DNA of 64,000 nt from assembly GCA_009103225.1 (NCBI GenBank), contig RHPI01001403.1, forward strand, positions 1 to 64,000, read 5' to 3'. Origin of the DNA: Chlorokybus atmophyticus (lineage: Eukaryota; Plantae; Mesostigma and Chlorokybus algae). Positions 26,922 through 54,213 of this stretch are shown here, in pieces. The translations under genes and the position numbers were made by a program. The notes under the pieces were generated by a model, which was not told the origin of the DNA, ran no database searches, and worked only from the letters and a program-made list of their open reading frames with translations. How positions within the stretch are numbered: position 1 is the stretch's first letter; each line of letters opens with the position of its first letter.

Positions 26922-28852
26922 AAACAGAAAAATACCTCACACACCAAAGAGATAGTTAATATCCCCTTAAAACAAGAAACCCAACCCCTCCAAGGGCTCC
27001 GATACCACTGTAACGATGCTCGTGCTCACATACACAGCACACAAGTCATACAACACATGTGTGCAGCTGAGCACAATCTTCACACCGGAACCTTGCCTTC
27101 ACTCGCGCACGCACGCACGCGTCGAGCGCGCCCACGCACACGAACACTACTACTTCTCACGCCAAGCAAGAACGCAGCAGTGTGCCTTGGACCACAACTC
27201 CCTCAAGCATGCACCAGCATACTCACAGCAGAGAGCAGAAAACAAAGTTGGTTGCATTACACAGGGTTTTTCTATGTATACAAGCACTTAGGAAGAAATA
27301 GCCTAATTAACAGGCATTTCTTTATTCACTACCAAATCTAAAGGCAGGTCCAAGTGCAGGCTCCCCGCCACGCGCGTTGGGCCTTCGGCGGCTGTGTGAC
27401 TGTGCAGTCCGCGTCACCTGGCACTGCACAGCGCGTGTCCGGTCAGCGGCTGTGTCACAACCGCGTGGCAGGTGGGTCACGTCGCCGAATTAGCTGCTGT
27501 CGAGCAGGTCGCAGGCGAGTCGCGCGCGGCAGCAGGGGCAGGCGCCACATGGGCTTAATAAAGCTCATAAAAGCCCTCATCAAGCCAGCAAAAAAGGCAA
27601 AATAAGTACTTTATGTACAATAAAATACAAAATATGCCCCAGGCTGTTACACACCTCCTCCCTCATGTCATAATCTGGGCCGGCCTGATTGAAGCTCCTG
27701 CCAACACAGTGGTCTGGGAACTTGGCCCACAGCTTCTCCTTTAGAAGCTTGCGGTTGTCCTCCTGTATTCTCTACTGTGTCTCGTCCTTCTTCAAGTAAG
27801 CTTGCCCATTTTGCTCTAGTCCCCTAGGCTTGTCAGCGACAGGGGCAAAGCACTTTTCCTCCAGCTTTGCCTTCTTGACTGCCTCTGACTCGTCGTCGCA
27901 GTTAACTTCATGAACAGCTCCTGCGCACAAGGCCAACGTTCAGCGCATGGCACTCGCAAAAGAGAGCAAAGCAAGCAGAGCTTTAGCCAAGCTGCAGCTT
28001 CAGCTATGTTGCAGTTGCGGCTTGGCTAACGCTGTTGCTTGACTGAAGCTGCAGACCGAAGCGTACAAAATACAGCAAGTAGAGCTTCACCCAACCTACC
28101 ACTTCAGCTAAACTGCAGCTGCGGCTTGGCTGAGGCTCTGCTTAGCAGAAAGCCGATATGCAGCTTTTACTCAAGCTGCAGCTTCAGCCAAGCCGCAGGT
28201 TCAATTGAGTTGTAGTTTCAGCTTGACTGAAGCTGCAGACCAAAGCATACCAATGAGCAAGCAGAGCTTCAGCTGCAGGAGCAATTAAGTTGCAGCAGCT
28301 TGGCAGCAGACTAGTTGAAAGCAAGCAAACCTGTGTCCCCAGGTTGTGCTCCCGCCTCGTCTTGCTCCTCTTCATCTTCAGCTTGCAACCTCGGCTCATC
28401 CCTGTTTAACTTCTGCACGTCTTCAAGGATCCGCGAAGCAATGCTCAGCCTAGGTGTGATCTGTGCAAGAATTTCTGATGAGAGGCTGTAGTAAGCGTCT
28501 CCATCAATTTCTTCCTCCTTGAACTTCTCCGCTATTGCTTGTGCACTTGGAACCCCTCTCAACAATTTAGCTACCCGTTTGGAGATAAGCTTAACGCTCA
28601 TCCTATACACTGACATTGTGCTTGAGAGCAGCACACAACCTTGCAGCTTGGTAGCAGCTAGAAACAGCTTCCAGCACCGCAACCTAGCAAGTAGGCCCGG
28701 AAACGCCAAAACGCAAATCAGTCAACCACCGATTTCACTCCCGCCACCACCTTCACTCCCGCCACCTCCGCCGCCGCCACCGCCGCCGCCGAAGCACTGC
28801 GGACAGCTGTGCTTCTTCGGAGTCTTACTGCGCAGAAGTCAGCTGCGCACAA

Positions 28853-28882: not shown

Positions 28883-29015
28883 ATTCCTGAGTAATAAATA
28901 GCCACAGCAGCATACATAGGACATACAACGGCTATCCCTGTGTGTGGCGGCGGCGTGCTTGGTGGCCTCGGTTTGTGAAGCGTCGAGCTGTTGCAGCGTA
29001 TTGAGCATAGCAAGC

Positions 29016-32000
29016 ATGAAGGGCAAGGCAGAGGCTAGTGCATACTGGCAGTCTGGTGCAGAGCAGCCTTGGCGCTGCAAATATTGTCAAGTCTTGTTGC
29101 AGAGGTCCGTTGTCAGCAAGGTCAAGCAGCACATTGGCTCCCTCACCTGCACCAAGATTCGTGTGGGCCCTGAACAGTTTGAGAAACTGCCAGGAGCAAC
29201 GCCCAAGGAGAAGCTCCCTCACGGCTCCGAGTTGCAGCAGCTCACCGACCAAGTTGTGCAGCAGATAAAGGTGAGCTTGCTTGGTTCATGCTTACATAGT
29301 TGCATTTTTGCATGTTTTATTGTCTGTGTCTAAGCTGCTATCTGTATGTATGCTGCTGATGTAGGTATGCTGCTGCTAGCTGTATATATCTCTGTCTGTG
29401 TATGCATCTCTATCTGTTTATGTATCCTTAAAGCTGAAGTAACTACCCATACAGGACGGTGAGCACTTGGCAATACCGGAAGATTGGGGACCTAGCGGCC
29501 CCCCCGAAGGTTGGAAGCTGGAGAAGACTTCAACCGGGCACAAATGGGTGTACACGCATCCTCCCAATCCAGCTGCATCAGAGCTGAAGGACAAGGGGAA
29601 GGAGGAGGAGCAGGAGGAGGAGCAGGAGGTGTTGGATGAGGAGGAATCAGAGGAGGAGGAACCACCAGCAGCTGAGACCCCAGCAAAAAGCCAAGACAAG
29701 CATTATCCTCCAAGAAGAACGGCCAGCCTTCAGTTCCACAAACGCCAGCAAAGTCTACCAAAGCAACGCGGTCTGGAAGTGTAAGCCAGCAGCTACATGC
29801 AGCCAAGCTTGTGGATGTAGGGTCTGACGGATGCACACTGACTAACTGAATGCATCTGCCCTGCAGGCGCATGTCAAGCCCACAGAACTGGCACACCCTA
29901 CCTGGGACATGGTGCTGGCCACCGAGGAGCTTGTGGACAACTTGAACGAGGTAAGTCCACAACCCGGTCTTGATTGCTTCAGTTTGCGCTTCATTGGTGC
30001 ACATTTACGAATGGCACAGGCTGTCAAGAAGATGTCTTTAGTGTCTAAATGCGTGGAGAGAATGCTAGACCTTGCAGCTGAGGAAAAACAGAGCTTCCAA
30101 CAATTGCGGAACACCATCCAAACGGAGAGATCACACTCGCTGACTGTTCTTGACAACACGAATTCTTGTCATGAAATCTTGAAAACTGAAAGAAAACAGC
30201 TAGACTTGGACAAGGTCTTTGGTGTGTTTACTCTTTGTGCATTCTGCAGGCGATACACTGACTGGTACACTCACCTTGAGTTGTATGTGCTTGCAGGCAG
30301 CAGCCAAGGCTCTTCTGAAAGAAGCTGCCAGGGAGCACAAGGAGCTGCGCACTGCATGCGAAAAGCTGGAGAAAGAGCGCAAGGTGCTGGAGGACAGATT
30401 ACGCAAAGAGGCAAACACTCCTTCAGCTCTGCTGCGCGAGACCCATAACACCGTAAAGATCAACGAGCAGCACCTCTTGGAGATAGGCGTATGCTGGCGG
30501 GTGGTCTTCAACAAGCTTCAACAAGTAGCTTCCATTCTCTGCCGGGGCCCGAGGCAATGGAGGTGGAGGCGAGGAGCCAGCAGGAGCTAGAGGAGGAGAG
30601 GAGGAGGCAGGAGGAGGAGGCAGAAATGAAGAGGCAGGAGGAGGAGGAGGAGGAGAGGAAGAAGAAGGAGGAGGAGGAGAGGAAGAAGAAGGAGGAGGAG
30701 GAGAGGAAGAGGAAGGAGGAGGAGGAGAGGAAGAGACAGGAGGCGGTCGCATGGCTACAACAGGAGGCTGCGAGCTTAGGGTTCGTCTTGAAGACGCCGG
30801 AGGATGAAAAGGAAGAAAAGGAGCAGCAGGCGGAGGAGCAGAAGAGGAGGCTGAAGGAGGAGACGAGACAGAGGGGGGAGCAGGAGGAGAAAAAAAGGAG
30901 GGAGGAGGCGCTGCTACGGCTACAGCAGGAGGCTGCGCTATTAGGGGTGACCGTGGCCCCACAGCCTTCATATTCTGCTGCGGGGACCTCACAGCCTTCA
31001 CCTTCCGCTACTTTAACTGAGTCGGAAGAACAAGAGCATGAAGAACAAGCTTCCAGTGACGAGGACGAGGAGAAAGAACCCGCTCCGGCTGCCACGACAG
31101 CTCCCGCTCCCGCTGCCACGACAGCTCCCGCTCCCGCTGCCACGACAGCTCCTGCTCGTAAGTTTTTATCAGTGAATGTGTGAGACTGCAGGAGAGACTG
31201 TAGGAGAGACTATAGGAGAGACTGAGCTTGTTTATGTGTGTTAGCAAGAGAAAAAAATCGAATTCCAAGAACACATGGAGGGTAGGTCCGGTAAGATTAG
31301 CTCAAAAGATGAAGATTACCTGCTTGTGAGCTTGTAAAAGGTGATCGGTTGCTGTGGTTGCAGAAGCTGGCGAGGATGAGGAGCAGGAGAAGGAGGAGGT
31401 GCTGGGGGTTCCCCCGGGAAACGCATTCCTCGCGCTAGAGGAGTATCTGGCGCAGCAGCAGCTGCAGCAGCAGCAGCAAATAGTGCCAGCACCCCCACAA
31501 AACCCAGTTCAAGACATTGACCTCATGAGGCAAATGTCAGATCTGCAACAGAGGTACCAGGAGCGTGTCAGGCAGGTCAGGACGTTGCAGGCCTGGCGGA
31601 GCAACATGTCGGAGTTAGTCAGGAAACAGGTAGAGGAGCGTGACAGGCAGATCAGGAGGTACAGGGCACAGCTTCAAGAGCGAGAGAGAGAGATCACAGC
31701 TTACCGCGCACAGCTCAATAGGTTGCAAGTGTCTCCAACCTACGTTGTGCCTCAAGCATTGGAAGCAGTTCCAATGCCTTCTTCACCTCTCATTGCTATT
31801 CCCGCTCTGCTGCCTGGAGGTAGAGGAGCCATGCCTTTGCCTGCGATTCCCGAGGATCCTACACCTCCAGCTGCTCGTCCTGCTCTGCTGCCTTCTGCTC
31901 CACGTGGACATGGGCACAGAGGTAGAGGTAGGGGCTTCTCGCTGGTCATGCATGGATCTTCAGCAGAATCCACTGGCGGACAAAAAGCTGAACCTCCAAC

Positions 32001-32040
32001 GAGACGACGAGGCGGTCCTCCACGCTGCAACACGCACTAG
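29016..32040 (+). CDS. Multi-exon gene: BED-like zinc finger (W..CKYC..H..C), PEGW..WVYTHP module (WW/MBD-like), acidic and E/R/K coiled-coil low-complexity regions
   Basis: Chained ORFs 28944..29333, 29467..29784, 30219..30590, 30491..31183 and 31354..32040 with GT-AG boundaries. Domain names are tentative. Confidence 0.45.
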
Positions 32041-33050
32041 TTTGGTGATAGTTATGTGTAGATTGCGTGGCTTAGGAGCGACTTACAGTGATGCTGCTGT
32101 ACATATATACAAGCCCTTTTCTGCTTAATACCAGACTGCATGCCAAGGCACAGCTCACCTTAATCACGCGTACACATGGTAGTTGCGCAACTTGCTGATG
32201 TGAGGGTAGGACCGGCCCTGCTCGCGCCTAGTATCATGATCAAGCTTGACCCAACACCGGTAATTATGAGACCCCCGAATTTTCGAAAATTCATGGCAAA
32301 CGCACTGAATATTCGTTGGATTTACCGTTTCAGCTTTTTATCGAGTGAATATTCAAGTGTTTTCGTACATTTTGTGCAATCCCTGCCAAAACGAAATCGC
32401 GACATTCACCTATAAATCGCGTGAATATCCACACGATAAATCAATGCCACCTTTCAAAACCCATATACCTCGTATATTCAGTTGAAATTGATTGAATGTT
32501 CAAGGCATGCAATTGTGAATGGACACAGCATGTGCTCTGCTAAATATTCAGCTATACATTGCCTGAACATTCATGAAGGGGCATAAGCTTGTGGCTATAA
32601 CAGACAGCTTAAACTCACCAAGTCCCAACTGCCCGTGAATAATCAATTGATCAGCTTGTCACACATGTATATTCATAACCTTCATCAGTTTCATGCCACA
32701 GATGTGAGTGAACATTCAACACCAATCTAAAACTACGCAATACGATTCACACTAAGTCCTAGCTTTGAGTGAATTTTCAACACCATTCCAAAACCAAGCA
32801 ATACGTTTTGCACTAACTCCTAGCTGTGAGTGAATATTCAACCCCACACGAATAAACATATACTCTCATTTTGGCCAAGTCCCGAATGTGATTGAAACCA
32901 AGTAGAGTGCACTGCTAATTCTAATATACAGTCTAGTATATGTCAAAGCCAGAGTTGCTCAGCAATTCTACACAGCTGGTTTGAGTTGATGGTGGGGGAC
33001 AGCTCTGATATGGACTACAGCATTGCTATGCTACACACCACCTGCTAATA

Positions 33051-35085
33051 CTAGCTCAACTCATGTCTTTGCTGTGCTAACATACTGTCCATGAGTGTTC
33101 GCAATCGTCTTCTCAACCTGTCTGCCACTTGAGGATGAAACCAACTCCTTTGCATCTGCACACAACCACACAGCAATAACATGTGGTTACTAAGCACGTG
33201 TCGGCCTACACGACAGTGCCATTGAAGCACCTTCCACTTGTAAACATTGCAGTGCACATGCATGAACTGTACCTGTTGAAATATCCGTGCGTTTGGGACA
33301 ATTGGACCAGCTTGTACCCCATCTATGAACTTGTCAAGATAAAGCATGACAAACAACCCGCACGCAACTCCATCCTTCCGCTGAGGGACCTGCACAAACA
33401 TGTGTCAATGCTTGCAAACCAAATGCATGTGCATGCATCCAATCAGTGTTTGTGACAGAATGCATGCAAACTCATCAATAGTGCAATGCAACGTGTGCTA
33501 CCTGTGGTACAAGAAGCTGTACGTTTTCGGGAGAGAAGCGTCGTTGTGAGTCACTTCCATGCTTTCTGCCCCACATGTAGTAAAGGTAAGCGCGCATAGG
33601 TCCATCAACGTTGCGATGCAGGCCAAGGGAGTCGAGATGGACGAGTAAAGGCGGCGTGTCACTTCCAAGTTGGCCTCCAGGATTGCACACAAGCAGCAGA
33701 CTCCAGTGAGTCCTGTGAACAATCAAAATAATTCCAGTTTGCAAATACAGCAGCAATTCAGCAAGATATTCTTGGCGCTTATTCTCACCGCGTGTCTGGG
33801 TTGACAATCACTCCCAGCAAGTCCTTGGCAAACGGATCACTCTCCCACCTGTCTATCCTGTGATTGCTCGTGTGCCAGTCATTTTGTCTATGGTAGCGCA
33901 CGTTCTTGGTGTAGAAATGCGGGTGGAACAGCTTCACCTGAATGCCATCTGCTCTGCCTAAGATTTCCTCTTCCTTGTATCTGCATGTGCATCCCACGTA
34001 CATATGAGATACACGAATAACACAGACGCAACAAATCACATACCTGCAAAAGAAGTGGAGGATGGTGTCATTGAGCTCTTGTCTGCCATCCAGCAACCTC
34101 CTGTCCGTTTCAAGCACTGGCACCGCATCACGTGCACTTGCACTAGGGTAAATGAACAGTGGCTGCGGTGTTGACGGCTGCGGGTTGCTGACTGGATCGT
34201 CCAGCACCATGATATCATCATCGCTGCCCACGAGGTCCACAACTGCCGCAGCCGTCGTGGGTTGCTGATTACAGCCCTCTTCGTCTTCATCGTCAACTTC
34301 CATCGTGACTGCCTCTGCAGCCATAAATGGTTCAATTGGGCAAGAACCACAACGCAAATCAACAAGCTCAAGCACACAGTTGCTTACTATTGTTAGCCTC
34401 ATCCCCACTCTCTTCAATGTGTTGAACCCAACTCTGCACAGGTTGTGAAACCCTACCGCAACTGCCCGGCAGAGAACGATGAGCAAGGCTCTCCCTTGGG
34501 AGCTGCGCTGGAGCACCACCTTCTTCGTACGCAGCGCATCGCGAGCACGCAACCTCAACCATGCTACCCACAGCATGCCGTCGACAGAGGCTGTTTGGAC
34601 ACGTCGCGCAGACTTGAAAAGCTGCTTTGTTGCAGTTCTTCACATGGCACCTGTGTTTTGGTTCAGTACAAGTGATGATGGTTCTAGGAGTGAAGTTCCT
34701 CACAACAAGATGCCAAGCATTTGCTGCAATGAAGTCCACTTACTCATGCCTTGGGCACTCCCAATATTCATCCTCCACAGGTGGCATAGAGACACAGTGC
34801 GCGTGGTAGCTTTTCTAGCAACCTTCCACATCGCAGCCAGATATGGTGGCCCCCATCCTTGCAGACAAAGCAGTAGTCTTCATGTTCCCGATGTTCCAAC
34901 GCATCCAGCTCCAGTCTCGGTCTCATCCTGTGAACAAAGGTTCAGTGGCCAGGTCTACAGTCTCACAGTAGGGATATGAGGCATCACAATCGCAAACAGT
35001 ACCTCTTGTACTCAAAATGCCAGTCGCGGCGTGTGGTCCATGACACCTCGCTCGAGGCGCTATTGGTTTCGCTTTGGGCACCCTG
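33051..35085 (-). pseudogene. PHD-C5HCH (NSD-like) + Ulp1/SENP-type C48 SUMO protease, multi-exon
   Basis: HEDYCFVCKDGG..GCDVEGC*KSYHAHC...WECPRH|ECHVKNC..CATCPNSLCRRH, then ELNDTILHFF, HWSLLLVCNP (His), LDSL (Asp), VPQRKDGVACGLFV (Cys). One frameshift at about 34850 and one TAG at 34815. Confidence 0.8.
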
Positions 35086-35149
35086 CACCAAGTACACAAG
35101 ATGGTTGTATGTGATGCCAAAACCCAGGATATATGAGGACATCTATATT

Positions 35150-37650
35150 CTAATGGACAACGTTGTTAGGCAGCTTTTGCCAGAGCTGCGCAACCAACAT
35201 GATGTACTTCAGTAGCCACAACCATGGTTGCAAGGACAGTCCGATATACAGATACAGTCAGACACTGATAACAGTAAGTGCAAACACTGCTGCTGCTTGC
35301 GTACCTGGGTAATCATGGATTACAATCTCTAGAATAGATCTGCAACGGAAAACTGCGTCGCGGTGGCTGTCATATATGTCTATACCTACATTAAATGCCA
35401 GCAGATTACGTGCCTCAGTCATGCGCATTTGTCAAGCATGACTGCAGTAATGGAAGCTGCTTATCCTAGCTGCGTTGAAACCATACCTTCCCAGAGATCT
35501 CCCAACTGGTCAATAATTGGCTTGAGATAAGCCTGTAGATTCTCTGGCTGTTTGGGTCCAGGGATTACAGCAGCTAAAAATGTAGTGTCTGTCTTGTGCA
35601 TCTTGGCAATGGGCAGGTTCAACACTGAGATTGTGACCACCCAAAACTCATGGTTCCCTGCAACTCAACAAACCCTTTGCTGCCATTTGTACAGTTACAC
35701 TGCAACGAGCATACAGGAAGAAAAATGCTCTTTTATACCTTTGTGCGGATCTTTGAACGGGCTCATCCCGTCGATGAACATCGCTAGGCGCACATTGCGT
35801 GGTTCTTTTGCAAACCGGCTGTAGCGTTGTTCAGTGTCCTTGAACATTGGCGAGTCTGACAGCAGCAAGTACACCAAGGGCTTACGACCAACTGCCCCAG
35901 CCCCACAACACATTCAAACATGCATACAATCGCAAGGCTGGATACTGAGGTCTTACATACCGCCCCAGCACCTCGCCGACACACAAACAAACACAGGCAA
36001 GGACACCGAGGTCTTACATGCCGCCTCAGCGCCACGCCGACACACAAACAAACACAGGCAAGGACACCGAGGTCTTACATGCCGCCTCAGCGCCACGCCG
36101 ACACATAAACAAACACAGGCAAGGACACCGAGGTCTTACATGCCGCCTCAGCGCCACGCACACAAAAGCACAAGGCACGGACACTGAGGGCTTGCATTGG
36201 ACTGCCCCAGCCGCTCACCAACACAATCATGCACACAGTCGTGCCTCATTTACCACTGAACTTGGCAATGTTACCGTGTATAGATCGCATAATCCCATCC
36301 TGACTTCGATTTGTGTGCGCCATCATCTCCGCAGCAACACTAGGTTTTAGGTACAGAGCCCTCAGCGCAGCAGGCACGTCAAAGTAACGCCCAATCTTCC
36401 ATGCAACTTGTCTACCTCCTATGTTGCGGTAGCGAGGGGCCTTGCAGACTGCATAAGCAAGTCGTATGCTGATGGGACATGCTAATCAAATCCCATTGTA
36501 GTGAACATTTGCAACAATTGCTCACCTTTGCAAAGTATCCTGTTGGCATGTCGGCCACAATACAACATGTGATCACAGCGATAGGCATCATATGTGTGGA
36601 AGCCCATGTTGAGGCCTTCAAGGCATTTCAATAGCTCGTGCATGCTGCCTGGCATCTTATTCTCCTTAGGCAAGAGGATGCCACGCAACAACCTGGCACA
36701 CAGAAACACATCAGTTCTGAACAGGCTGATGTTTCAGCAGTCAGCAGTGTAATTTGCCCACCAACCTGAGCAGTTTATTCATGAAATTGAAGGGTATTCG
36801 ATGTAGCTGCGCCAGAACCAATAGCCGCATCGACTTGCTCAGCAGTGGAGGTGCAGTGCACTGGCGTCTCAGGCTCTACTTGTCCATTTGTGGATTTGGT
36901 TCTGGCACCTTGATGCTCTTGCAATGTAGCATTCTCAATTCCACAAAATGCTGGGTGAGATCCGCGTTGTTCTCCATAAGCACATTGTCCTTCATGAGCA
37001 CACGGATTACAACCTGCCAGCTGCAATGAGTCTAGTGGCACATGAACAATGAGAGGCACAGCATCAGCAATGTCAACATGCCACGCAAGTCAGGTCGTAC
37101 CTGCTGGTTGCAAGTTGGCTGCAACATTGAAAGGAGATTCAACACTCGGTTGCAACGGCGTGCCTGTGTCAACATGTTCAGTAGCGTCGTTCCCAACTAG
37201 CAATTGTTCGGTGTCATGGAGAGCTTCACCTGGGGCAAGCCAGATCAATAATCAGACAGCCTGTTGTATAGATTCACATCTGTAGAGAAGTTGCTCTTGT
37301 ACCTGATGGCATGTGTAAGGATGCAGCAGCAACAGCAGCATCAGCTTCTTCAAGTTCATGGGGTTGTAGTCGATCACGGTATTCAGGAGCAACAGCTTCT
37401 GGAGTGCCACACCACATGTTTTTGCCAAAGTTTTCATGATAATCAGCCCTTTTAATGTGGTTGTGTGTGAACACTTTGCTCCCTTTGCAGTCGCGGCAAA
37501 AACACCTGCGAAAGTAGCTCATGCTACAAACATCAAAAGCAGTCAGCCAACATACTGCAAGCAACTTTCAATCAACTTCCATACAGCCAAAGCAAAGACC
37601 TGCAGGCACGCTGCCGCCGCTGACACCGCTGCCGTCGCCACCGTCATGAC
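35150..37650 (-). pseudogene. CACTA TnpD / Transposase_21-type transposase, intron-rich, 3'-truncated
   Basis: Spliced motifs CFCRDCKG, LLPKENKMPGS, RYFDVPAALRALY, DSPMF..FAKEPRNVRLAMFIDGMSPF, LNLP..AVIPGPKQPENLQAYLKPIIDQLGDLWEG, IVIHDYP. Ends abruptly at about 35150, joining an intron of the PHD-Ulp1 gene. Stops at 37007, 36876 and 35166. Confidence 0.9.
35890..36200 (-). repeat. 62-bp minisatellite (~4 units) in a transposase intron
   Basis: ACACAAACAAACACAGGCAAGGACACCGAGGTCTTACATGCCGCC is repeated with a 62-bp period. Confidence 0.85.
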
Positions 37651-37797
37651 TGCCTACCGTAAATTAAGGGTTTAGGACACATCCAATCCCGATTCAAAAC
37701 AAGCCAGAAAGTCAATCCGGATATGCTCCACAATTTGCGTACATGCTCCTTTTCTTCTTCCAGCCAGTGCATTAGCTTCTAGGGTTTGTGTGCCAGG

Positions 37798-39565
37798 TAG
37801 CGTGGCGCCAGGACCCAATACGCGGCGTCAAAGTGTGTAGCTTCTGCAAAGCATACTTGGTTAGGAATGGCAACAACAGACGTCTGCAACAGCATGAAGA
37901 GAAGTGCAAGCTGTACAGTGAGCAGTATGGCTTCTATGAAGCCTGCTGGCACCACAAGGCAAGGGGGGACAATGTGAGGCAATGCAGACTGCTGGCACAA
38001 TGCATGAGGCCAGATTTCTTTTGGGAGGAGTGCACTTGCCTGCAGTGCTCGCTTTCCAAGTTTGAGTGGGACGGCGAGCCCATGAATCACCTGCCTTGGG
38101 CACGGCTTGGAGCGCATCGCGATGGGCAGATGTGCAAAGTGGTTCGACGTCAGCTCGTGCGCAACGGTCGCGGCAAGTCCACTATAATTGAAGACGATGT
38201 CAACAACAGGGTGAGTTGAACTGTCCTTGCAAACAGCAAAACAGCGCTTGCATGCATGACCAACTTACTCTGAATGCCAAAGGGGAACGCGGTTGTCGAC
38301 GATGTCGCGACACTGGCTGCTTGGCGGTTGTCGAGTTGAACTGTCCTTGCAAACAGCAAAACAGCGCTTGCATGCATGACCAACTTACTCTTGAATGCCA
38401 AAGGGGAACGCGGCTGTCGACGATGTCGCGACACTGGCTGCTTGGCGGAAGGAGATTGTTGATGAGGGGCAGTCTTTGGTAGCATGCCGCGTTGTGGTGT
38501 ACTGGCCAGGAATGAGCTCCTGGTATGCAGGCCACATCATCACTTTTGATGCCAACACAGGTATACTGCAGAGTATTTACATGCGCACGCTCATGCAAGC
38601 ACCGGCTCAGGCAAACATGTGGCTCAGGAAAACATACCATCAAGTACGACGATTTCGTTGAGGACCCACGGCTGCACCACATCTTGATAAAGAACTTGAA
38701 CATGGCAGCTGTGCGTGAGGGTTACGACGTAATGGTTCGTGTTGGTGGTTAAAGCTGTCTGAAACTGCAAGACTTGCCTGGTCGAGAGCTCGATCGATGG
38801 CCCAGGCCCCCACCCCTTCTGATCACACGCACACCAATAGACTCAGACGGAAGACGTTGCAGGCCGCGCGCACTGGATCTCTTTTGCGGCGCTGGTGGTG
38901 TAGCCATGGGTCTGTACAGGGCAGGGTTTAATGTTGAGGGCATTGACAACAAGCCACAACCGTCATACCCATTCAAGTTCTACCAGATGGATGCAATGGA
39001 CGCTGACCCGACAGCATACGCTGCGGTGTGGGCAAGTCCTCCATGTCAAGCTCTAAGTGGGGCCATTCCCACTACACAGCGCTCCGCGTACGGCAATCGA
39101 TGGGAGCACGTCAACCTGATTGACCCCATAAGAGCCAAGTTGCAGTTGAGCGGCAAGCCATGGGTGATAGAGAATGTCGCAGGCGCATCAGGACACATGA
39201 CAACTCACCTGAAGCTGTGTGGCACCATGTTCAAGTTGGATGTGTATCGTCAGCGCATCTTCGAGACAAACCCTCCACTGCACTCAGACTTGAAATGCAA
39301 CCACACTGGTTGTGCACTTGGAAAGCTGGCCACCCACCCGGAGCAGCGCCGGCAGTTGCTACCTTGGGAGAGGCAAATTTACCCGGTATACGGCCAAGCA
39401 TCCTGCCGTGGCACGATTGCAGGGTGGCAGTCTGCCATGCAGGTGGAGTGGATGGATGCGGAATCGGAAGTCAAGAATGCCATTCCACCAACTTACTCTG
39501 AACATGTAGGCAGGCTGTTGCTGGAAGCAATAGGCTTCACTGTTGATTACCCTCCTTTTTACTGA
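37798..39565 (+). CDS. C2HC Zn-finger / Tudor / C5 DNA cytosine methyltransferase gene (one in-frame TAA before the MTase)
   Basis: Exons about 37798-38210, 38404-38560 and 38628-39565 with in-phase GT-AG introns. Zn finger CSFC..HEEKC. Tudor LVACRVVVYWPGMSSWYAGHIITFDANT|GKHTIKYDD. MTase motifs DLFCGAGG (I), SPPCQ (IV), ENV (VI), YRQR (VIII), NAIPP (X). TAA at 38750-38752 is in frame with ORF 38774..39565. Confidence 0.85.
38213..38448 (+). repeat. 120-bp tandem duplication of an intron plus exon start
   Basis: GAGTTGAACTGTCC...GCTTGGCGG occurs at 38213 and 38333. Only the second copy continues into the Tudor exon. Confidence 0.85.
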
Positions 39566-40948
39566 AAGGTAGAGGTAGCTCTTGATTGCTGGCCACTTTG
39601 TTAGCCTGAACTCAAACCCAACAACAGAATGAGCGACCCAATAAAGTCAGCAAGAGGTCTTAATCACGAGGATGCCTCTGTTTGCCAGCACGGGAAAGAC
39701 TGACCTGCTGGGCAGGGTCTCTTCCAGAGCACCTTCATGCCCTGTTGCGCCGTCCGCCCACCCGAGACTAGACCTCCTGCGGGTTCACTGCGAACGCAGG
39801 GTATGGTCCAACCAAAGCTGACTCGCGAAAGTCATGAACCAGAGGCTCTGAGCATGTGCACAAAGTCTACAGTACGTGACTTGCGCGAGACGGCTCTGCA
39901 GGACCACATCCTGCGTTCGCAGTAAACCCGCAGGAGGTTTTGTGTCGGGTGGGTGGGCGGGCGGAGAAGGAGAACTTCTAGGTTGCTGTGCGCATGCCTC
40001 TGGTTGCGTGCAATCTTTGGACACATGCCCGGTTTCAGCGGTTGCCGGGGCCAGTACGAGGGCGTGCCAGTACGAGGGCGGCATGTCAACAGCAGCAAGA
40101 GGTGTTCTCTCGGGTGGGTGGGGGGAGAAGGACTGCCAGCCTGAGTTGCCATATCACAAACAGCAACCCAACCCCAGCGGCAGGTACAACCGCCGTCCAT
40201 CCAAAAGCCCTGGAGCAGATCGCGACCAACAAGTTCCATGCAGAGGCTGGAGGTGGTTGAGAAGGTGAAATGCAATCACAGTTAGTATATGCACGAGAGC
40301 GACGCATACCTCATGACTTACTGCAGACTTCTGTTACCACCTCCACTCTACAAGTGCTGTCACACTTACCTGTGCGCCGTGACTGCATACAAACAGCAGC
40401 CAGCAAGGCTCCAAAGGCGGTGCGTTCGCAGTGAACCCGCGTGCAGTCGAGATGATCCTAAGCATACAAAGACAGGCAGATGTGGGTGATTGCGTTTTGC
40501 TGCAATCATTCAACATACACAGACAAGCAGCTAAAGCTAACACACTCTATCCTGTACAAAGACAACGAGATTGTCTTTCCTCTATCCTGTCATGTCAAGC
40601 TCCTGTCATGTCACCTGGAAGAACACCTCCACTTCCTGCTGGTTAGCAGCGAAAGCAGGTGGCACAGGCAAGAAGGGGGCAAGAAAGTGAGCAAGAAGGG
40701 GGCTTAATCACAGGGTGATGCCCCTAAGCTCTGCATACAAAGACAGAATGAGCAAGCAGAGGGCTTTTTCACGAGGATGCCTCTGCATTCAGCATGAGCT
40801 CAGACCTGAATCGGGAATGAGAAAACAGAGGGCTAAATCTAGAAGATGCCTCTGTGTTCAGCTTGAATTAATATATACACTTACACATGAGGTTGGCCCT
40901 GCAAAGCTGGTAGTCGTAAAGTGAACAACCTCGAGGTTGCTGTCACAG

Positions 40949-43940
40949 CTACCTCTGCTGCTGCGGCTGCTGCTGCTGCTGTGTTTCCTTCTGCTCCCGC
41001 CGCTGCTTTCGCTGCTCCTTTCCCTGCTGAGCCATTCGCTTTATCTGTTGGCGCTCCTCCTCCTTCTGCCGCTTCAGCTGCTTACGCAGCTGCTCCTGCT
41101 GCTCAAGGGTCTCCTGTGCAGCTATCATCTCCTGCTCACGCTGATATGCAGCTTGATGTGCCAGCTTCTTGCCCTCCCGACGACTGCTGATTTGTTCCAG
41201 TCGTTCCAATTTCTGCAACCTGCTTGGCCTTGCTTTGCCTAACTCAAACTTTGAACGATCTAGGAGGTGTGCTTGCTGTTTAACAAGCAAGGTCCGTTCA
41301 TAAGTCTTGGCAGCCGACACAAGCAAATCGAACTGATCAGCATTCCAATCTTGGTTGCAAGGACCCTTGGGCACGCCAATGCGCACTACTTTCCTGAGTC
41401 TCTGGAGAAACAGTTGTAGTTTAAGGGCCTTAGGCACCAGCTCAACGCAGGTGTTTGCCACCCCGCACAATTGTGCAAACTGCGCATGATATTCGTCCAC
41501 GGTGCGCTCCCCATGTTGCACACGATGCAGCTTCTAGAAAGCATCGGAAGGCGTGTTGTCCCTTTGCAAAGCAGCTCGCTGTTGGCGGCGTGACGGGCGG
41601 CGTCTGCGTTTCTTGGGGTCACTGGTGTCACTGGTTGCTGCGGTGCTGATGTCAATTGACATATCACTGATAGCATCAGCCTCCTCCTCAACAGCGGCAT
41701 CAACCTGCACAGCGCCAGCCTCCTGCTGGCTCCTGGCCTCAGCCTCCTGCCTTTACTGGTCTTTAGCCTCGTTGGCCTTAGCCTCCGCCTCCTGCCTCTG
41801 CTTGGCCTCGGCCTCCTCCTGCTTGGCCTTAGCATTGGCCTCATCCTGCTGCTGCTTGGCCTCGGCCTCCAGCCTCTGCTTGGCCTTGGCATTGGCCTCA
41901 TCCTGCTTGGCCTTGGCCTCCGCCTCCTGCCTCTGCTTGGCCTCGGCCTCCTCCTGCCGCTGCTTGGCATTGTCCTCATCCAGCTTGGCCTTGGCCTCCG
42001 CCTCCTGCCGCTGCTTGGCCTCCTGCTTGGCCTGCTTGGCCTCGGCATCAGCTTGCTGCTTGGGCTGGGGCTCGGCTTGCTGCTTGGGCTGGGGCTGGGG
42101 CTGCGGCTCGGGCTGGGGCTGGGCTTGCTGCTGGGGCTGGGGCTGGGGCTGCGGCTGGGGCTGGGGCTGGGGCTGGGGCTGGGGCTCGGCATCTGCAGGG
42201 TACATGCAGCGCAGGACTTCTGGTGGCATGTCGCTGCGCTGCCAAGAGAGTATACCATTTGCATCACCAACAGACATGTAATGCGCGCTGGGCTTGCTTG
42301 GATCCGTGTTGCCAATGATTATATGGCCAGCCACATCGATAACATCCTCGCCAATCACCACTACAGGTTTGACGGAATGCTTCTCTCCCTTGGCATCCAC
42401 CGTGTAGTACCTCCCGTCATCGCCTTCGATGAGGCCGCCCTTATGCTCTGCTTCCCAGCAGTACTGCTTCTCGTCGGCAACCTCAGTGAGCTGCACAGTA
42501 CCGATGTGAATGCCAAGAGCGTGTGCCATGATCGCCACTTGCAGTTGATCGGCATAAACGCTCTCTTCAGCGATTACTTTCTGCAGAGCCTCTACAGCGT
42601 TGTCTTCATCTTGCTTAGTCTTGAGTTGCTTTTTGTTAAGTGCCCTGGTTACGCCATATTTGCTGGCCATCTTTTTGTAATCCTGGCCCATGTCACCATA
42701 GGCCCCGTACTTGCGATACTCCAGCAACCAATAAAGGTTGACCTGCTCAGCACAGATCTTCCGAAGCTTTTGCGCTTGCTCTCTTGTTGGCAGCTGTTTG
42801 CCATTGTCCAGCACAATGCTTCGCCAGAAAGACCCGTTGTCCGCTGCGTTCGCGCGTGTCAAGCACGCAGCGTTCACGCGAGGGCGCGACTGGGCAAGGC
42901 AGGCATAGAAGCAATTCCCATCTGCATAGGCATCGAAAAGCCGAAGCCGGTGTTTATCATGCAACAGCCCAACCAGCTCTAACTCGCCCTCCGTTTCTGC
43001 TGGAGGTAGACCGTCTTCTGGTTCAAAAGCAGAAGCAGAGGCCTCCGCGTCGGCTTGCTGCTTGGCTTGGGCCTCCACTTGCTGCTTGGGCGCCTCTGTT
43101 TCGTAGTCAAGACCGTATTCCCCGATGTCGATGCCCATAGCAGCTGCCTCTGGATCACATAGCCTTAGCTCTTCCTCCACATACTGCCGTAGCTTGAGCC
43201 TCCATTCTCGATTGAGGGAAGCCAAGTCTGGTTTGCACAGCGCTTTCTTGATAAAGACCACCAGCTCACCCCATGACATGAGGTTCTTGCTCTTCGCCTT
43301 CGCTTTCCTCCAGTCAGAGAATTTTGCTTTCCCCACTTTGTCTTCGTTTCTTCATGGATGTCATTATCGGTAACAACATCTTCAAGGCCAAAATGCCCGA
43401 GGTCCATACCCTAGCAGCTGCCTCCGGATTACAAAGCCTGAGCTGGTCCTCCACGAACTTCCGTAGGCAGATCTGCAAGTTCTTGTCGAGCTCAAGCAAG
43501 CGAGGATCTTCATTCAGGTTCTTCTGCATTACTTCAACCACGACATCCCAACTGTATTCTGCGGACATCTTCGCCTTCCCAGCCTTCTCCTCCTCCCTTA
43601 GTTTCCGCCAATTATTGAACCCCTCCAGCAACTGAGCCTTTGTGGTGTCAAAAAGGTCTGCAATAGACAGTGTTATTGCAACAATGGTGGCAAACAACCG
43701 CAGTGAGCATGCGTTAGTATGGTCAGCTGGAACAGCGCTACATTACTTGATTTTTTGCAGGGTTTCCGCAGGACAGCTTCCTTCTTAGCGGGTTCCTTCT
43801 TGTGCGCTTGACCCTTGCTTCTTGTCTGTGTGCATGACCAGTGTTACCACATGTTAATGATAATCATGCTGAACAAGCATACATTACTTATTACCTGCAG
43901 GCTTAAACTGGCCAAAGGGAACGAGCTTTCGCTTGGACAT
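40949..43940 (-). pseudogene. OTU-family cysteine protease + (PQ)n + EAEAKQ coiled-coil repeats + retrotransposon gag-like domain
   Basis: DAYADGNCFYACLAQS (catalytic Cys) ... AHYMSV (His). ORF 41753..43336 continues in frame through TAA 41753 and TAG 41534 into QHGERTVDEYHAQFAQL..KLQLFLQRL (ORF 40949..41521). Two homopolymer frameshifts near 43330 and 43410. Confidence 0.7.
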
Positions 43941-44087
43941 GATGAACGACCTGAGGAAAGCCTCACAGCCAAAAACAAGCACACATAGTTGAGCAACATG
44001 AGCATGCACACACACACACGGCTGCCTATTTGAGCATGCAGACAAGCCTGAGCATGCACACTTTAGCCTCAGCCACAATGAAAACTA

Positions 44088-44358
44088 TAAAACAGCTTGA
44101 AAACTGAGCAAGAGGTGGTCTTACGCACAAGGCCGCCCCTCTGGTTAGCATCAAGTGGTGGCTAACAGGAGTGCATGCTCAAATAAAACAGCTTGGAAAC
44201 TGAGCAAGTGGTGGTCTTACGCACGAGGCCGCCCCTCTGGTTAGCATCAAGTGGTGGCTAACAGGAGTGCATGCTCAAATAAAACAGCTTGGAAACTGAG
44301 CAAGAGGTGGTCTTACGCACGAGGCCGCCCCTCTGGTTAGCATCAAGTGGTGGCTAAC
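44088..44358 (+). repeat. 96-bp tandem repeat (~2.8 units)
   Basis: TAAAACAGCTTG occurs at 44088, 44184 and 44280. Confidence 0.9.
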
Positions 44359-44711
44359 ATAGACAACATGCACTTTTGATAGTTAGCGAAATGATCAAAC
44401 GGGCATGCATGCAAACAAAGACAAGCACGGCATGTGCTGCACCTTGTTGGAAGCAGTGCCAAAACCCTCCAGCAAGCCCACCCGAAGCTGCAAGAAACCA
44501 CCTCGCCAGGGTTCTCGGACCCAATGAAGTAACTACAACAACCAAGCGAAAACACAACACTTGCACTTCAGCATTGAAGCCAACGCCGCCGCCCTTGCCG
44601 CCCAGCCTTGCCAGTTGCAAGTTGTCTGCTCGATCGCTACACCAAAACCCTAAGGAAATCAGTGATGGTCCATCAGTGATGGGCTATCACCTTTGACGCC
44701 ATAGCCGGCAT

Positions 44712-45309
44712 CCCTAACCCTAACCCTAATGTTTTTGTAAGTTGTTGTAGTTTGCAAGGTTGGTGGCGGGGAGGTTGTTGTGGTCGGCGGCGAGGTTGTC
44801 TTGGTCGGCCGCGGCAGCGTCTTTAGTTATAAAGGTTGTGGGCGGCGTGGTCGGCGGCGAGGTGCTTGAGGTTGGCGGCGACGGCGGCAGCCATCCTTGG
44901 TTGATGCAGAGCTACTTAGACAGATACGTGCAAGCCTGCCTGCCTGCCTGCATGTTTTGTTTGTGCGCGTGCGTGTGTGTATGTGTGCTGGTCATTCACT
45001 GGGGCGGCATGTAAGCCCTCAGTGATCTGCCTTGTTGTTTTGTTTCTGTGATTCTGTTGGTGATTCACTGGGGCGGTCTGTAAGACCTCAGTGACCTGCC
45101 TTGTTTTTGTGTTTCTGTGCATGTGTGCTGGTGAGTCGCTGGGGCGGTCTGTAAGACCTCAGTGTCCTGCCTTGTGGTTTTGTTTTTCTGTGAATGTGTT
45201 GGTGAGGAGCTGGGGCGGTCTGTAAGACCTCAGACCGGCCTTGTGGTGTGGACTGGGTGAATGTTTTTGTGACTCTGTTTCGCCATATGTCATAACCCTA
45301 ACCCTAACC
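44712..45309 (+). repeat. Two (CCCTAA)n blocks (44712-44729, 45293-45309) each heading a diverged ~200-bp GC-rich module, with a ~70-bp minisatellite between them (44995-45235)
   Basis: Read directly. The minisatellite core GGGGCGG.CTGTAAGACCTCAGTG is related to the 35890-36200 repeat. Confidence 0.75.
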
Positions 45310-48300
45310 GCCCGGACATGTTGTTGTAGGTTGTGGCCGGGAGGCGGCGAGGTTGCCGTGGTTGGCGGCGAAGTCTTTGAGGTCGGTGGCGATGGCGCCA
45401 GCGATCTTGAGTTCCTAGCAAGAAACTCAGGCAGATACGTCGCATGCAGATTTTAGTCAAGGTCGGCGGCGGCGGCGCCGGCGCAGGCAAGGTCATCGTC
45501 GTCGGCGGCGGCGGCGGCGATGCTGGAGCGCTAGCGGCTACACAGCAGATACGTGCATGCCGTGCTTCCTTGCGCATGCCATGCATGTGTGTGTGTGTGT
45601 GTGCGTGCTGTGCGTGCTGTGTTTGCTGCAAGCCGCTGGGGCAGCCTTGTGCATAACCCCTCAGTGGCCTTACCTGTGCTGCGGCACAAAAGTTGTTTGC
45701 TGCAAGCCGCTGGGGCAGCCTTGGGCATAACCCCTCAGTGGCCTTGCCTATGCTGCGGCAAAAAGGTGTTCTTTCTGTGTGTGCTTGCGCTAGCATTGTG
45801 TCTCTCAAGAGTCATTTCCCTGCTCCATTTCTGACTCTACTGTTGGTTAACTACGGTGTGTGATCTACAGGTAAACAGCTACCATTCAGCGATGGCCGGT
45901 CGCTTTAGGTCCAGTGTAGTTGATCTCGTCGAACATGAGGTAGGTATTTGGTCTTGACTCAGATGCTTGCATGCATTCAACAGAGGGTATGATGATCCAG
46001 CCGGCTGCTTCCAAGACAGCAGGTAAACCAGAGCTCGCATGCCAGGCATGGTGTGTTTGTGGATGAGACTCAGGTCAGAGTATTTGGCTCTGTGTTTTGG
46101 GTGTCTTGGCATTCTTACAGCTGCTATCAACAGGTTGAGCATTGCCTGCAGCATGTTTGCAGGACACCGCCAGTCACGGTGCCCAAGAAGTTGGCAAGAG
46201 CTCCAGCGACGACAGGGACAGATAAATGCATCCTTGCATGCGTATCACATGAATGTGCATGTGTGTGTATGGTGTCCAGTCAGCTGGGGCAGTTGATTGT
46301 AAGCCCTCATGTGTGTGTATGCGCGCGTGTGTCGCAAAAGTCCGTGTTCACTTCTTCTGCTGCGCAAACATACCTTGTATTTGTGCATATGTGAGTGCAG
46401 TTGTGAGGGGTTTTTCCAACAGCATGTTTGGGCAATTCTACTGCCAGTGTTAGGCGCTTGCATGCCTGATTTGTGTCCAACAGTTTTGAGCGCAACCCGC
46501 TTTGCCTTGCAGGCTGTGCTACGGCCATGAGGTAATACAAAGTACAAGGTCAGATCTTTGCGTCATCCTTGCACAAGGCCTATAGTTTGGTGGTAGTTTT
46601 GGTAGTTGTATAGTTGTTGTGTAGTTGTTGTTGTTGTGTAGTTGTATAGTTTGGTGGTAGTTTGGTAGTTGTTGTGTAGTATAGTTGTAATGTAACTAAT
46701 CTGCTAGTCACTATGTTGTTGTGAACACGATCGTGGCGGTTGTGCCTGAGCTGATCTGCTGCTAGATCTCCAAGTTGCACAAAGGCACACACCCCACTGT
46801 TATCAGTAATTGCACATGCAACAGCCACACTTGGAGAATTACCAGCAGAGCAGCTCAGCGGTAACCAGAGTGTAAAGGGCAAACAAAGTGTGTAGAGCAA
46901 TGGTCATTGCGACGAGTCACTAGAGTCACTAGGTTCACTAAGAGGGTCGCGAGTGGGGAAAATTCCATTACAAGTTGGTGTGAGATTGGTACCGGGCGTT
47001 GCATCAGGTGCAGGGACCTCGGAGCCAGTAAACACACTCCAGCGTGCAGCAATATTGTTGTCGCACTCGATCACAACGCGCAGGCCAGCAGCGCCATAGG
47101 TGCCCGAGTCAATGATAGTGCGAGCAGGAAGAGGCGCATCAGGAGGCGAGGGAGTGTTCTCATGCACGGAGACTGCCACATACACACCGGTTTGTACAGT
47201 AGCTGCAATCGCAATGGGTGCCTGATGAACAATTCCACGAGTTGAAAGCTCCCAATTGCATAATTGGACCTGACAAACAAGTTTACAGGTTAACTCGCAT
47301 GTTGCATCGCATTCATTCATAAACGTGCGCCAGAAGTTGATGCAAATGCATAGACAGCGCCTCTATTGTTATGGACATGAACTGGACACGCATTCAGGCA
47401 GTAGCATGGCATGACATGCACGGCATGTAACGCGCAAGGGTGCTGCATGGTAGCAATCAGAGCTGTGCATATATATAGGCGTTCCTATCATAGCAGGACA
47501 AACATATGCACACTACACATGCAAACTCAACCCAAATTGCACACAAGGCATACGCATGTACAAACAATGCGCAATAGTATGGCACATGCATAGTGGCATG
47601 CATAGTCAGCAGCATGCAGAGTGTCATAGCGCACGCAACTCACACCATGAATAGCGAGAAAGATACCTGATGATAGCGAGCATCGCCAGAGTCCACATAG
47701 CCGTTCCACGGTTGTGTCAAGACCTGACCTAGTCCCACTAATCGCCGCCCGACTGCGAGGAGCGCCTGCGTTAGAGCCTCATTCATGGTGCGCATGGGTA
47801 CAGGGGGGTCCATTGTTGCAGCACAACTACCAGCATGCATTGGATGTTTGGGTTAGGGTTACTTATAGTTTGGGGTAAGCCACACAGACACCGTCCTCGG
47901 ACATGGAAGATTTCATCGGAAATAGAGAATGTAATTTCGCTTGGTTTGTATGGACCAATAAACATAGAGTTCATTTTGGCAATCAAAGTTTCGACAAAAG
48001 GCAATTTCCACGGCAATTGCTCGTGCGGCCTATTGCGGTCGGAGACGCGACTGGTGTCCGACCAGCACAATTGCTGATGTGGATTTTCCGAACGATCACT
48101 GCATTCCATTGATTGCAGGGATTTCCGCACCGGGAATTGCACTGATTGTCCCACAGCACCGGCGTACTTGCTGGTTGTGTTGGCGGCGGCGGTGCTGTGG
48201 CGAGGTGAGCGAGCGTTGTCAGCTGTCTTGTCGCACTGCTTTTCTAGTGGTTGCATGCTGGGTCACTTCGTTGCAATTAGCAAATACAGCATGGTGCTGT

Positions 48301-48319
48301 GCAGCTAGCATTCTGGACT

Positions 48320-48753
48320 GCCATTTGCCTGCTAGCTTGCTGTTAGGCTTACCTTTGTCGTGTTCAGCTGGCAAGAAGCTGAAGCAGCTTCTACTCTACA
48401 AGGTACTGGGTGTTTGGCTTGTTGGGTGCCTGTTTGACAAGTTCACAAGCACATGTTTGTGCATGCACATGCCATTTGCCTGCTAGCTTGCTGTTAGGCT
48501 TACCTTTCTCGTGTTCAGCTGGCAAGAAGCTGAAGCAGCTTCTACTCTACAAGGTACTGGGTGTTTGGCTTGCTGGGTGCCTGTTTGACAAGTTCACAAG
48601 CACATGTTTGTGCATGCACATGCCATTTGCCTGCTAGCTTGCTGTTAGGCTTACCTTTCTCGTGTTCAGCTGGAAAGAAGCTGAAGAAGCTTCTACTCTA
48701 CAAGGTACTGGGTGTTTGGTTTGCTGGGTGCCTGTTTGACAAGTTCACAAGCA
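48320..48753 (+). repeat. 151-bp tandem repeat (~3 units)
   Basis: GCCATTTGCC occurs at 48320, 48471 and 48622. Confidence 0.9.
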
Positions 48754-48948
48754 CGCCCTTTGTGCAAGCAGCTTGGAGACACTTTTTTTGCAAGGTACAT
48801 GGTTTGCTTGATGTGACAAGTCAACAAGCAAGTCCACATGGCTTACAACCTGCAGTCACTTGAGTCAACCAAGACTTGAGGTTGATTAGGGTTGCGGTTG
48901 CAACTGACTTGTAAAGCAAGCTTGATCTATCTACAGGAGGGCATCATC

Positions 48949-51444: not shown

Positions 51445-52249
51445 GTAGCAGAGATACATTGTAGACATCAGTGAATTTGTTGTTCGAGTCAGCTGCCATT
51501 CAGCTGACATTGCTGTCCAAATTCACCGGCTGGACTGATTGCTATGTGCTATGTCACAGCTATGCTATGTCACAGCTGTTGACGATAGCAAGATGCAGTG
51601 ATTATTCAACCAAACTGTGAGTGAATAACCACTTATATGTGTGTGAGCAGAAGTGCTGTATTATTCAATTATCATTTGCGTGAAAAATCAACCAAAGGCA
51701 GCAGTGTTCAACCATACTATGGGTGAATAACCACTCATATATAGGACTGTGTGAGAGCAGATATGCTGTATTATTTAATCACAAATCGTATGAATAATCA
51801 CTCGCCAGTGTGGTACATGTGCTGTTGAAACAGCTTTAGTATGTGTGAACATTAAGCCAATATGCGTGTGAATAATTACCAATAAGGAGGACATAGTGTG
51901 AGAGCAGGCGCTGTAAATATTCATGCACACAAAGTATGAATAATCACTTGGTGCCATGGTACAAGTCTAGGACCATGTATACCTAAGAAGACTGAATATG
52001 CAGTTCTGTCGCGAGTGAATAACTACTCACATGTAGGAGGTTGTGTGCGAGATGGACAACTACAATTATTCATGACCAAAACGTGTGAATATCCATTGCT
52101 TGTATTCAGGGCATTTGGCCTGAATAATCAGCAATCGTAACAGCGACCTCTGCAGCCACGCAAGTGGCGAGTTCACACATAAAACAGATGAGTATTCAGG
52201 GCAAATGCGCTGAATTTTCAGAAATTCGGGGGGTCCAGAATTACCGGTG

Positions 52250-52289
52250 CTGCATGCAAAGAGGGGTACGTACCCCTCTTTGCATGCAG
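52250..52289. repeat. Perfect 40-bp palindrome abutting the right TIR
   Basis: CTGCATGCAAAGAGGGGTAC|GTACCCCTCTTTGCATGCAG. Confidence 0.95.
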
Positions 52290-54010: not shown

Positions 54011-54213
54011 GATGTTTAGAAGAGATGTGGCAATGTGACTGAAGTACGCATGGACTGTACCTATCCTGGCAGACAACACCCCGAGATGGGCACGCCCTTA
54101 GGAGGTCCCGTGTCAATGTGGCCCTGAACCTCTGCGTTGCTGGCATGCTAGCGCAAGCCAGTCAAGAGTAAACTCCTGAAGAAACGTTTGTGGATGTGTG
54201 CTTCACTGCACCT

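Follow-up and report, generated by a model that had tools for sequence, protein, structure and literature searches.

The 64,000-nucleotide (nt) stretch of contig RHPI01001403.1 from the alga Chlorokybus atmophyticus analysed here (the window) contains a CACTA/EnSpm-like DNA transposon of ~20 kb at 32255-52249, which carries a predicted spliced gene (37818-39565, plus strand) joining a zinc finger, a Tudor domain and a C5 cytosine methyltransferase domain. The window copy of this fusion gene is decaying and looks dead; related copies keep the Tudor-methylase frame open, with ATG at its start and CAA in place of the only internal stop. The interpretation that we favour, with moderate confidence, is that an intact copy would give one spliced 495-residue zinc finger-Tudor-C5 methyltransferase protein, whose Tudor domain would dock on methyl-lysine of histone H3, whose N-terminal finger may bind DNA, and whose methylase would deposit 5-methylcytosine (5mC) on DNA close by, with copies of the element itself as the most likely target. 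Self-marking would be the purpose of such a protein, which travels with other cargo of the element (a SUMO protease, PHD and an OTU-like domain) in a host with CpG-depleted repeats (observed/expected ratio (o/e) 0.68). We infer the steps of this mechanism that go beyond the single open frame.

Exon 1 (37818-38210) holds the start-codon position, which reads ATA in the window, and a Cys/His-rich region. A first-pass annotation of this DNA, made from its letters alone, had seen a C2HC finger there; the spacing motif C-x2-C-x15-H-x3-C is found at 37836-37907, along with additional Cys and His residues, whereas a Pfam scan of the finger gave no match. We take this finger to be BED-like. Intron 1 (38211-38403; donor GTGAGT at 38211, acceptor 38403, phase 0) is followed by exon 2 (38404-38560), which contains, from ~38467, the N-terminal two-thirds of the Tudor domain, and intron 2 (38561-38627; 67 nt, phase 1) lies within that domain. 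Exon 3 encodes the Tudor end and a linker (38628-38833) and then the methyltransferase domain, of the phrog_363 family (38834-39565), assigned by profile, alignment, AlphaFold and Foldseek. Each of the two introns runs from GT to AG, with phases that match, and the three exons (37818-38210, 38404-38560 and 38628-39565) add up to 1488 coding nt, or 495 amino acids (aa). The sole internal stop of the spliced frame is the TAA at 38750-52 (codon 225 of 496), after which the frame stays open to the TGA at 39563-65 and contains DLFCGAGG, SPPC, ENV, RxR and AIPP. The in-phase exons, the single TAA and the methylase frame behind it are all present where the first-pass annotation had placed them. Its exon 1, which began at acceptor 37797, has been revised to start at 37818, a position reading ATG in the two runs X1 and X2; exon 1 acceptors at 37796 or 37782 with upstream ATGs were abandoned on the same grounds. 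Besides ATA and TAA, the window copy carries a third lesion, a 121-bp tandem duplication (38212-38327 and 38333-38449) that spans intron 1, where its first copy lies, and the start of exon 2. The duplication creates two exon 2 acceptors, and the frame stays open with the second only.

Six runs, none recorded as RNA, were listed for this DNA. Other copies of the gene were examined in contigs of runs X1-X3 over 30000-46000 and of X1-X3 and X5 over 37300-39800, X1 and X2 coming from two different studies; X5 yielded no contig there. At position 38750, which the contigs of X3 do not reach, both covering runs (2/2) have C at full depth (31.5/31.5 in X1 and 48/48 in X2). The codon is CAA (Gln), the reading in other copies that the first-pass annotation had set as its test, and the single Tudor-methylase frame that it proposed is held there. 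X1 and X2 each have two contigs over 38625-39136, ~99% and ~89% identical to the window: the near one is 512 nt long with 7 differences, the diverged one 530 nt long with 58 differences and 18 gap letters. Because the depths of the near and diverged contigs add up to the full depth, both kinds of copy apparently read CAA. In X1 and X2, G is found at 37820 at full depth and 5 nt are missing just upstream, giving the ATG at 37818, and a diverged X2 contig likewise ends in ATG at this position. The diverged copy has 18 extra nt at 38725-31 in the linker, with the frame kept, and 17 extra nt within intron 2 (in another diverged X2 contig). It still has AG at the acceptor of exon 2, and in it 38227 runs on into 38419, as would be expected of a copy lacking the 121-bp duplication; depth is low across 38224-38307 in the other-copy contigs. 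The match of one X2 contig ends at the stop codon, at 39565. From the splice signals, the placement of the indels in the diverged copy and a Tudor cage spacing that splicing restores (see below), we infer the three-exon structure.

These contigs bear on two alternatives. The window could hold two units, a Tudor protein with a true stop and a methylase expressed from its own start or by readthrough; the TAA of the window copy would suit this, as would the nearest relatives, which resemble stand-alone frames of 260-390 aa. With CAA in X1 and X2, and with no ATG in the methylase frame between the TAA and motif I, we regard two units as very unlikely. Least probable of the alternatives considered is an assembly chimera, or a bacterial or phage contaminant, lodged in repeats. 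The window is made up entirely of repeats and the methylase is phage-like, but contigs from two studies run from the end of the Tudor domain through the linker into the methylase, and the 5' part of the transposase is linked to exon 1 in an X1 contig. The segment, for which the first-pass annotation had left room for an artificial join, is not chimeric. The composition of the fusion gene is also host-like (CpG o/e 0.60 vs 0.68; GC content at third codon positions 0.59 vs 0.63-0.68), and a C-terminal DNA motif of the related MBD group, described below, was matched in none of the three collections scanned (viral, metagenome and prokaryote genomes), blanks that count for little because the JGI protein P0004 does have the motif.

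The identification of the Tudor domain rests on profile matches and on its cage residues. Exon 2 matched PDB entry 7de9, the RDM15 Tudor, with E 0.01 and Pfam Tudor_KDM3B with E 0.065, and its Atlas leads were mostly Tudor-type families (scores 0.77-0.83); the Tudor end in exon 3, taken alone, matched nothing in PDB or Pfam. The profile evidence is weak because intron 2 splits the domain. Entry 7DE9 contains the Tudor domain of Arabidopsis RDM15 with H3K4me1, its cage being formed by W616, Y623 and Y641 and the acids D643 and D645 (PMC8184781). In the spliced model, W165, Y172, Y190 and D192 reproduce the spacing of W616, Y623, Y641 and D643 (W, +7 Y, +18 Y, +2 D), a pattern with one occurrence in the spliced product and none in the 127,996 six-frame residues of the window, which speaks against chance. 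Among the eight AG acceptors scanned, only 38627 yields this spacing; acceptor 38573 also leaves the frame open, but its intron would be 13 nt. The "clear Tudor motif" of the first-pass annotation is thereby upheld as RDM15 cage spacing in the spliced product, though not as a strong profile match. The second acid of RDM15, D645, which confers monomethyl specificity, is replaced by Val when matched by residue count, so that a mark other than H3K4me1 may be read. The residues retained make it likely that the spliced Tudor domain reads methyl-lysine on histone H3. When longer proteins were searched with the peptide of exon 2, 0/13 candidates scored, and tblastn of 103 loci with the spliced N-terminal part gave no real match (best E 0.16).

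The methylase domain matched Pfam DNA_methylase (PF00145) at its cut-off, with 22 bits, and the phrog_363 profile over its full length (E 7.9e-27, residues 12-232), neither being a chance match; an NCBIfam scan gave no match. Homology was found for 3480/3769 candidates. Matches were obtained in 324/50,697 phage records, mostly of actinophages, the best 25 of the 324 being 39-41% identical. The core motifs had been called intact in the first-pass annotation: C5 motifs I, IV (PC), VI (ENV) and VIII (RxR) are indeed present, whereas IX and X depart from the canonical form. Across an alignment of 119 sequences, that of the window included, the catalytic Cys, ENV and the second Arg of motif VIII do not vary; in spliced numbering the catalytic residues of the window protein are C323, E365 and R391/R393. 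The variable region is 73 aa long against a median of 66 aa in relatives (113/118 measured). An AlphaFold model of the domain (pLDDT 88.7) adopts a predicted full C5-methylase fold, for which the top Foldseek matches were M.HaeIII and DNMT3A/B at 12-16% identity; the best structural match was the Pithovirus LCPAC201 methylase (A0A481Z4Z4; E 1.9e-18, 35%). Close kinship to DNMT1, DNMT3, CMT or DNMT5 is not found, with 12-16% identity in the structural matches and marginal profile matches, and BAH, RFD, PWWP and SNF2 domains are absent from Pfam scans of the fusion protein. The first-pass annotation was right to place the domain with small phage methylases and apart from DNMT1/3/CMT. To judge from its retained residues, a protein of the window type would probably be catalytic when intact.

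Searching 1.84 billion representatives with a profile brought in further relatives, some of which carry readers of their own. The top relative, P0001 (242 bits, the runner-up having 186), carries an MBD as an insert within its variable region and forms an MBD group with P0004, P0159, P0161, P0163 and P0166; among six near relatives scanned, the MBD was above the cut-off in three and below it in three. P0166 bears the name of a Chrzof1 gene model from JGI, a code that we take to denote the chlorophyte Chromochloris zofingiensis. By their domain content, proteins of the MBD group are possibly read-5mC/write-5mC enzymes of ~340 aa. A second insert-bearing group (n=12; P0121, P0125 and others) has a longer insert that is weakly MBD-like (hhalign probability 21%), and its member P0162 shows an N-terminal fusion to zf-CW (CW finger). 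The variable regions of the insert-bearing relatives measure 123-244 aa, compared with 73 aa in the window protein. Four marine metagenome contigs with second-group methylases have intronless genes of eukaryote type and presumably come from giant viruses. Scans of IMG/VR with P0125 and P0004 gave no match; the A2 scan gave 19 loci at 33-48% identity, with 0 close members, so that named contigs do not show a giant-virus home for these groups. As to gene neighbours in the marine contigs, the methylase gene is immediately followed by one for an OTU protein in which PHD- and Tudor-like parts were recognized by eye (L102:875-3190), and an MBD protein lies near another (L103:3656-5533). Among prokaryote-type members of the family, P0131, P0136 and P0137 have intein-like inserts beside the catalytic motif, and P0155 and P0156 are tandem double-domain forms.

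Trees were built from rows chosen among about 290 fetched proteins, which did not include the eukaryotic DNMT families. A quick 76-row tree joined the window protein to the MBD group with support 99, and a careful 29-row tree placed it as sister to that group. Two terminal signatures outside the well-filled columns, chosen post hoc, are each present in 6/295 fetched proteins, all of the MBD group. A single origin of the MBD and second groups was neither shown nor rejected (p 0.18). The idea that an MBD was lost and the Tudor domain took its place was not adopted: the window protein is sister to the MBD group in the careful tree, so the absence of an MBD may be ancestral. The first-pass annotation had also proposed horizontal acquisition. 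A direct phage-to-transposon transfer is the less likely route, given that the nearest kin are eukaryote-type MBD proteins, one of them chlorophyte. The methylase was probably captured from an algal or giant-virus pool and is, by its family, ultimately of phage type.

The element that carries the gene has CAC..GTG inverted ends, which are the EnSpm criterion (PMC12730594), and a Tnp2 transposase. Its left terminal inverted repeat (32255-32314, plus strand) starts with CACCGG, and an AT-rich subterminal region extends beyond it to ~33000; the right one (52190-52249, minus strand) ends with CCGGTG and has an AT-rich subterminal region before it. The first 11 nt of the two repeats are identical. 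Short subterminal motifs or hexamers common to both ends, picked by eye, occur at ~19-20/kb, compared with 0.7/kb inside the element. In X1 and X2, contigs of the flank depart from the window at exactly 32254, and an X2 element contig begins at 32255 beside another flank; the insertion is therefore polymorphic. The inverted ends, the transposase and the polymorphic flank bear out the carriage by a CACTA-like DNA transposon that had been proposed at first pass. A perfect 40-nt palindrome (52250-52289) lies directly outside the right end.

Within the element, one or more multi-exon genes with PHD-like/C5HCH fingers and Ulp1 (SUMO protease) occupy 33054-34879 on the minus strand. Pfam gave C5HCH with E 4.8e-06 at 34371-34739 and Peptidase_C48 (Ulp1) with E 0.0076 and 0.052 on two exons; the PHD at 34703-34879, recognized by eye alone, had no Pfam match. 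The Tnp2-type transposase (35261-37520, minus strand) is multi-exonic, with 5' exons assigned by eye, and is probably incomplete here. Three frames matched Transposase_21 (E 5.4e-07, 2.6e-10 and 0.0012; positions 8-137/213 of the profile), and the C-terminal part, with the complete DDE core, was not found in the frames scanned. Loose ends of X2 flank 35168 on both sides and hint at sequence missing from the window copy. The fusion gene is oriented away from the transposase. A long frame at 41756-43351 (minus strand) has an OTU-like (deubiquitinase) domain, below the Pfam cut-off (OTU, E 0.086), and a multi-exon gene at 48886-51420 (plus strand) has TNP1-like last exons, assigned by eye and with no Pfam match, which we take to resemble the second (TNP1-type) CACTA protein. 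Diverged contigs have joints in each of four regions, Ulp1, transposase, fusion and OTU (at 42334 and 42947 in the last), which suggests a second, ~11% diverged element subfamily with the same cargo. The element also contains two related tandem arrays, 35906-36237 and 44974-45272 (61- and 70-nt units), inverted to each other, one of them in a transposase intron.

Several results weigh against the favoured interpretation. Every Tudor match is weak (E 0.01-0.065; Atlas scores below 0.9, with low recognition), and a Tudor fusion was found in 0/17 longer homologs. The sister position in the careful tree has weaker support (85/83), and a position of the window protein among prokaryote-type rows is not rejected by the approximately unbiased (AU) test (p 0.25). 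The whole gene or element is spanned by no single contig. The terminal repeats are no more than 78% alike over 60 nt, and the transposase appears incomplete in the window copy. A 3-bp target-site duplication was not found at the element ends (CAA on the left, CTG on the right), and for this reason the element is termed CACTA-like only; the right flank is palindromic and may be rearranged. As for the enzyme, motifs IX and X deviate across the family, with W..M..WM and AIPP in their place, and the alignment between the end of the family profile and motif X of 3g7u is only a weak one. Disruption of motifs VIII-X went with weak or no activity in other phage C5 methylases, not shown to belong to the same family, when these were assayed in Escherichia coli (PMC8256090), and a family member with tested activity was not found in the literature.

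The deviating motifs and the lack of a tested relative would also suit a fusion that is real and conserved but has little or no methylase activity, acting instead as a reader or decoy that binds chromatin or DNA of the element and so shields it from host silencing. The other cargo is in keeping with this, Ulp1 and the OTU-like domain being removers of modifications, and anti-silencing factors are carried by other DNA transposons (PMC12730594). The invariant catalytic Cys, ENV and motif VIII Arg, and the full C5-methylase fold of the model, argue to the contrary, and a decoy seems to us unlikely.

Equally improbable in our judgement is passive cargo, that is, a captured host gene or pieces of one, with open frames elsewhere reflecting recent capture and not a function for the element. 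Decay of the window copy counts for this and against the favoured interpretation. Among the differences listed between the window copy and near copies, 16/20 alter a residue and the same 20 are spread 7/6/7 over codon positions 1/2/3, a neutral-looking pattern that makes the window copy a decaying pseudogene. In a short stretch of exon 1 in the diverged copy, 10/15 altered codons specify another residue, which points to weak constraint in that stretch. The same group includes a nuclear gene model from a chlorophyte (P0166), and TET genes shuttle passively between fungal DNA transposons (PMC12730594). Yet two subfamilies ~11% apart apparently keep the ATG, the acceptor and CAA, with the linker indel in frame; the similarity of an X2 contig stops at the stop codon; and, as weak evidence, a stand-alone Tudor-fused host gene was not found among the 17 longer homologs.

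In favour of a finger-Tudor-methylase protein that would read histones and write 5mC on its own element, we count the recurrence of reader domains in the methylase family (MBD and, in P0162, zf-CW). A broader proposal, which we offer tentatively and rate as possible but rather doubtful, is that an active and hitherto undescribed DNMT lineage derived from small phage methylases has spread in green algae and giant viruses and has been repeatedly fitted with readers (MBD, CW finger and Tudor), its Tudor version, within a CACTA chromatin kit of writer-reader, SUMO protease with PHD and deubiquitinase, setting the methylation of the element's own insertions.

The rest of the window is also rich in mobile sequences. 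To the left of the element, frames at 28311-28721 (minus strand), 28920-29333 and 29443-29784 (both plus strand) are SAM, BED-finger and MBD-like by eye and lack Pfam support; they probably belong to another large repeat. Gypsy long terminal repeat (LTR) elements are found at 21515-27308, with a chromodomain after the integrase (by eye), and at 12435-16090; both have LTRs that are 99% identical. The chromodomain gypsy element, the style of the introns and the Chromochloris relative suit a green-algal host. Copia-type elements lie at 1212-4474 and 5606-8246, and a 1.75-kb element with inverted ends of ~175 nt at 16980-18731. Past the right end, 52300-58000 (minus strand) holds more multi-exon, repeat-rich genes with no notable Pfam match. 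Short telomere-like interstitial runs of CCCTAA/TTAGGG occur at ~28850, ~44710 and ~45295, upstream of or between genes.

The usual effect of cytosine methylation on transposons is silencing. Full-text literature searches, with Repbase and subscription papers outside their scope, gave no case of a C5 methylase on a eukaryotic DNA transposon and no record of this methylase family in algae. The closest parallel in a eukaryotic transposable element is provided by the DNMT-carrying retrotransposons of Symbiodinium and Klebsormidium, in which a C5 methyltransferase is likewise found inside the element (PMC5890265). These are LINE, DIRS and Gypsy elements, with Dnmt3-derived domains in the Pol of the DIRS and Gypsy types, and the text on them mentions neither Tudor nor chromodomain; the window element differs in being cut-and-paste, in having a separate spliced gene of a phage-type family, and in the Tudor fusion. 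The same paper reports DNMT-encoding DNA transposons in marine viruses only. Fungal EnSpm and other DNA transposons with TET/JBP share with the window element CAC..GTG ends and a cytosine-modifying enzyme, but they carry an eraser, whereas the window element carries a predicted writer and reader (PMC12730594).

Among proteins of similar layout, N4CMT of bdelloid rotifers also unites a bacterial-type methylase with a methyl-lysine reader, so that histones are read and DNA is written (PMC8885841). Its product is 4mC, its reader is a chromodomain, and its gene is one that the host has domesticated and that acts on transposons, unlike the C5 fold and Tudor domain carried on a transposon here. The phage methylases of phrog_363, such as gp151 of Gordonia phage BrutonGaster and mycobacteriophage genes, are 39-41% identical over 90-97% of the domain and share its short variable region and motifs; they are mostly 200-240 aa long, stand-alone and intronless, with no eukaryotic reader. 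The MBD and second insert groups are nearest by score and tree, and the window protein differs from them in having no MBD but an N-terminal finger and a Tudor domain. The ChloroDNMTs are algal DNMTs with a PWWP reader, and the orphan DNMTs were laterally acquired, one being Pithovirus-like; both are host genes, and the orphans reportedly lack companion domains in general (PMC12344493). DNMT5b carries a Tudor domain but is a host gene (PMC9998398), and giant-virus DNMTs occur in Amoebidium (PMC11244446).

The relatives described here indicate uncharacterised, very small C5 methylases that accept readers at two sites, the N-terminus and the variable region, which bears on the origin of new eukaryotic DNMT families and may serve as a compact scaffold for targeted methylation. 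Set beside the systems known so far, with writers on retrotransposons, erasers on fungal DNA transposons and a reader-fused foreign methylase as a rotifer host gene, a cut-and-paste element with a predicted reader-fused writer would supply the missing case, and with it the question of why a transposon should carry a silencing enzyme becomes testable.

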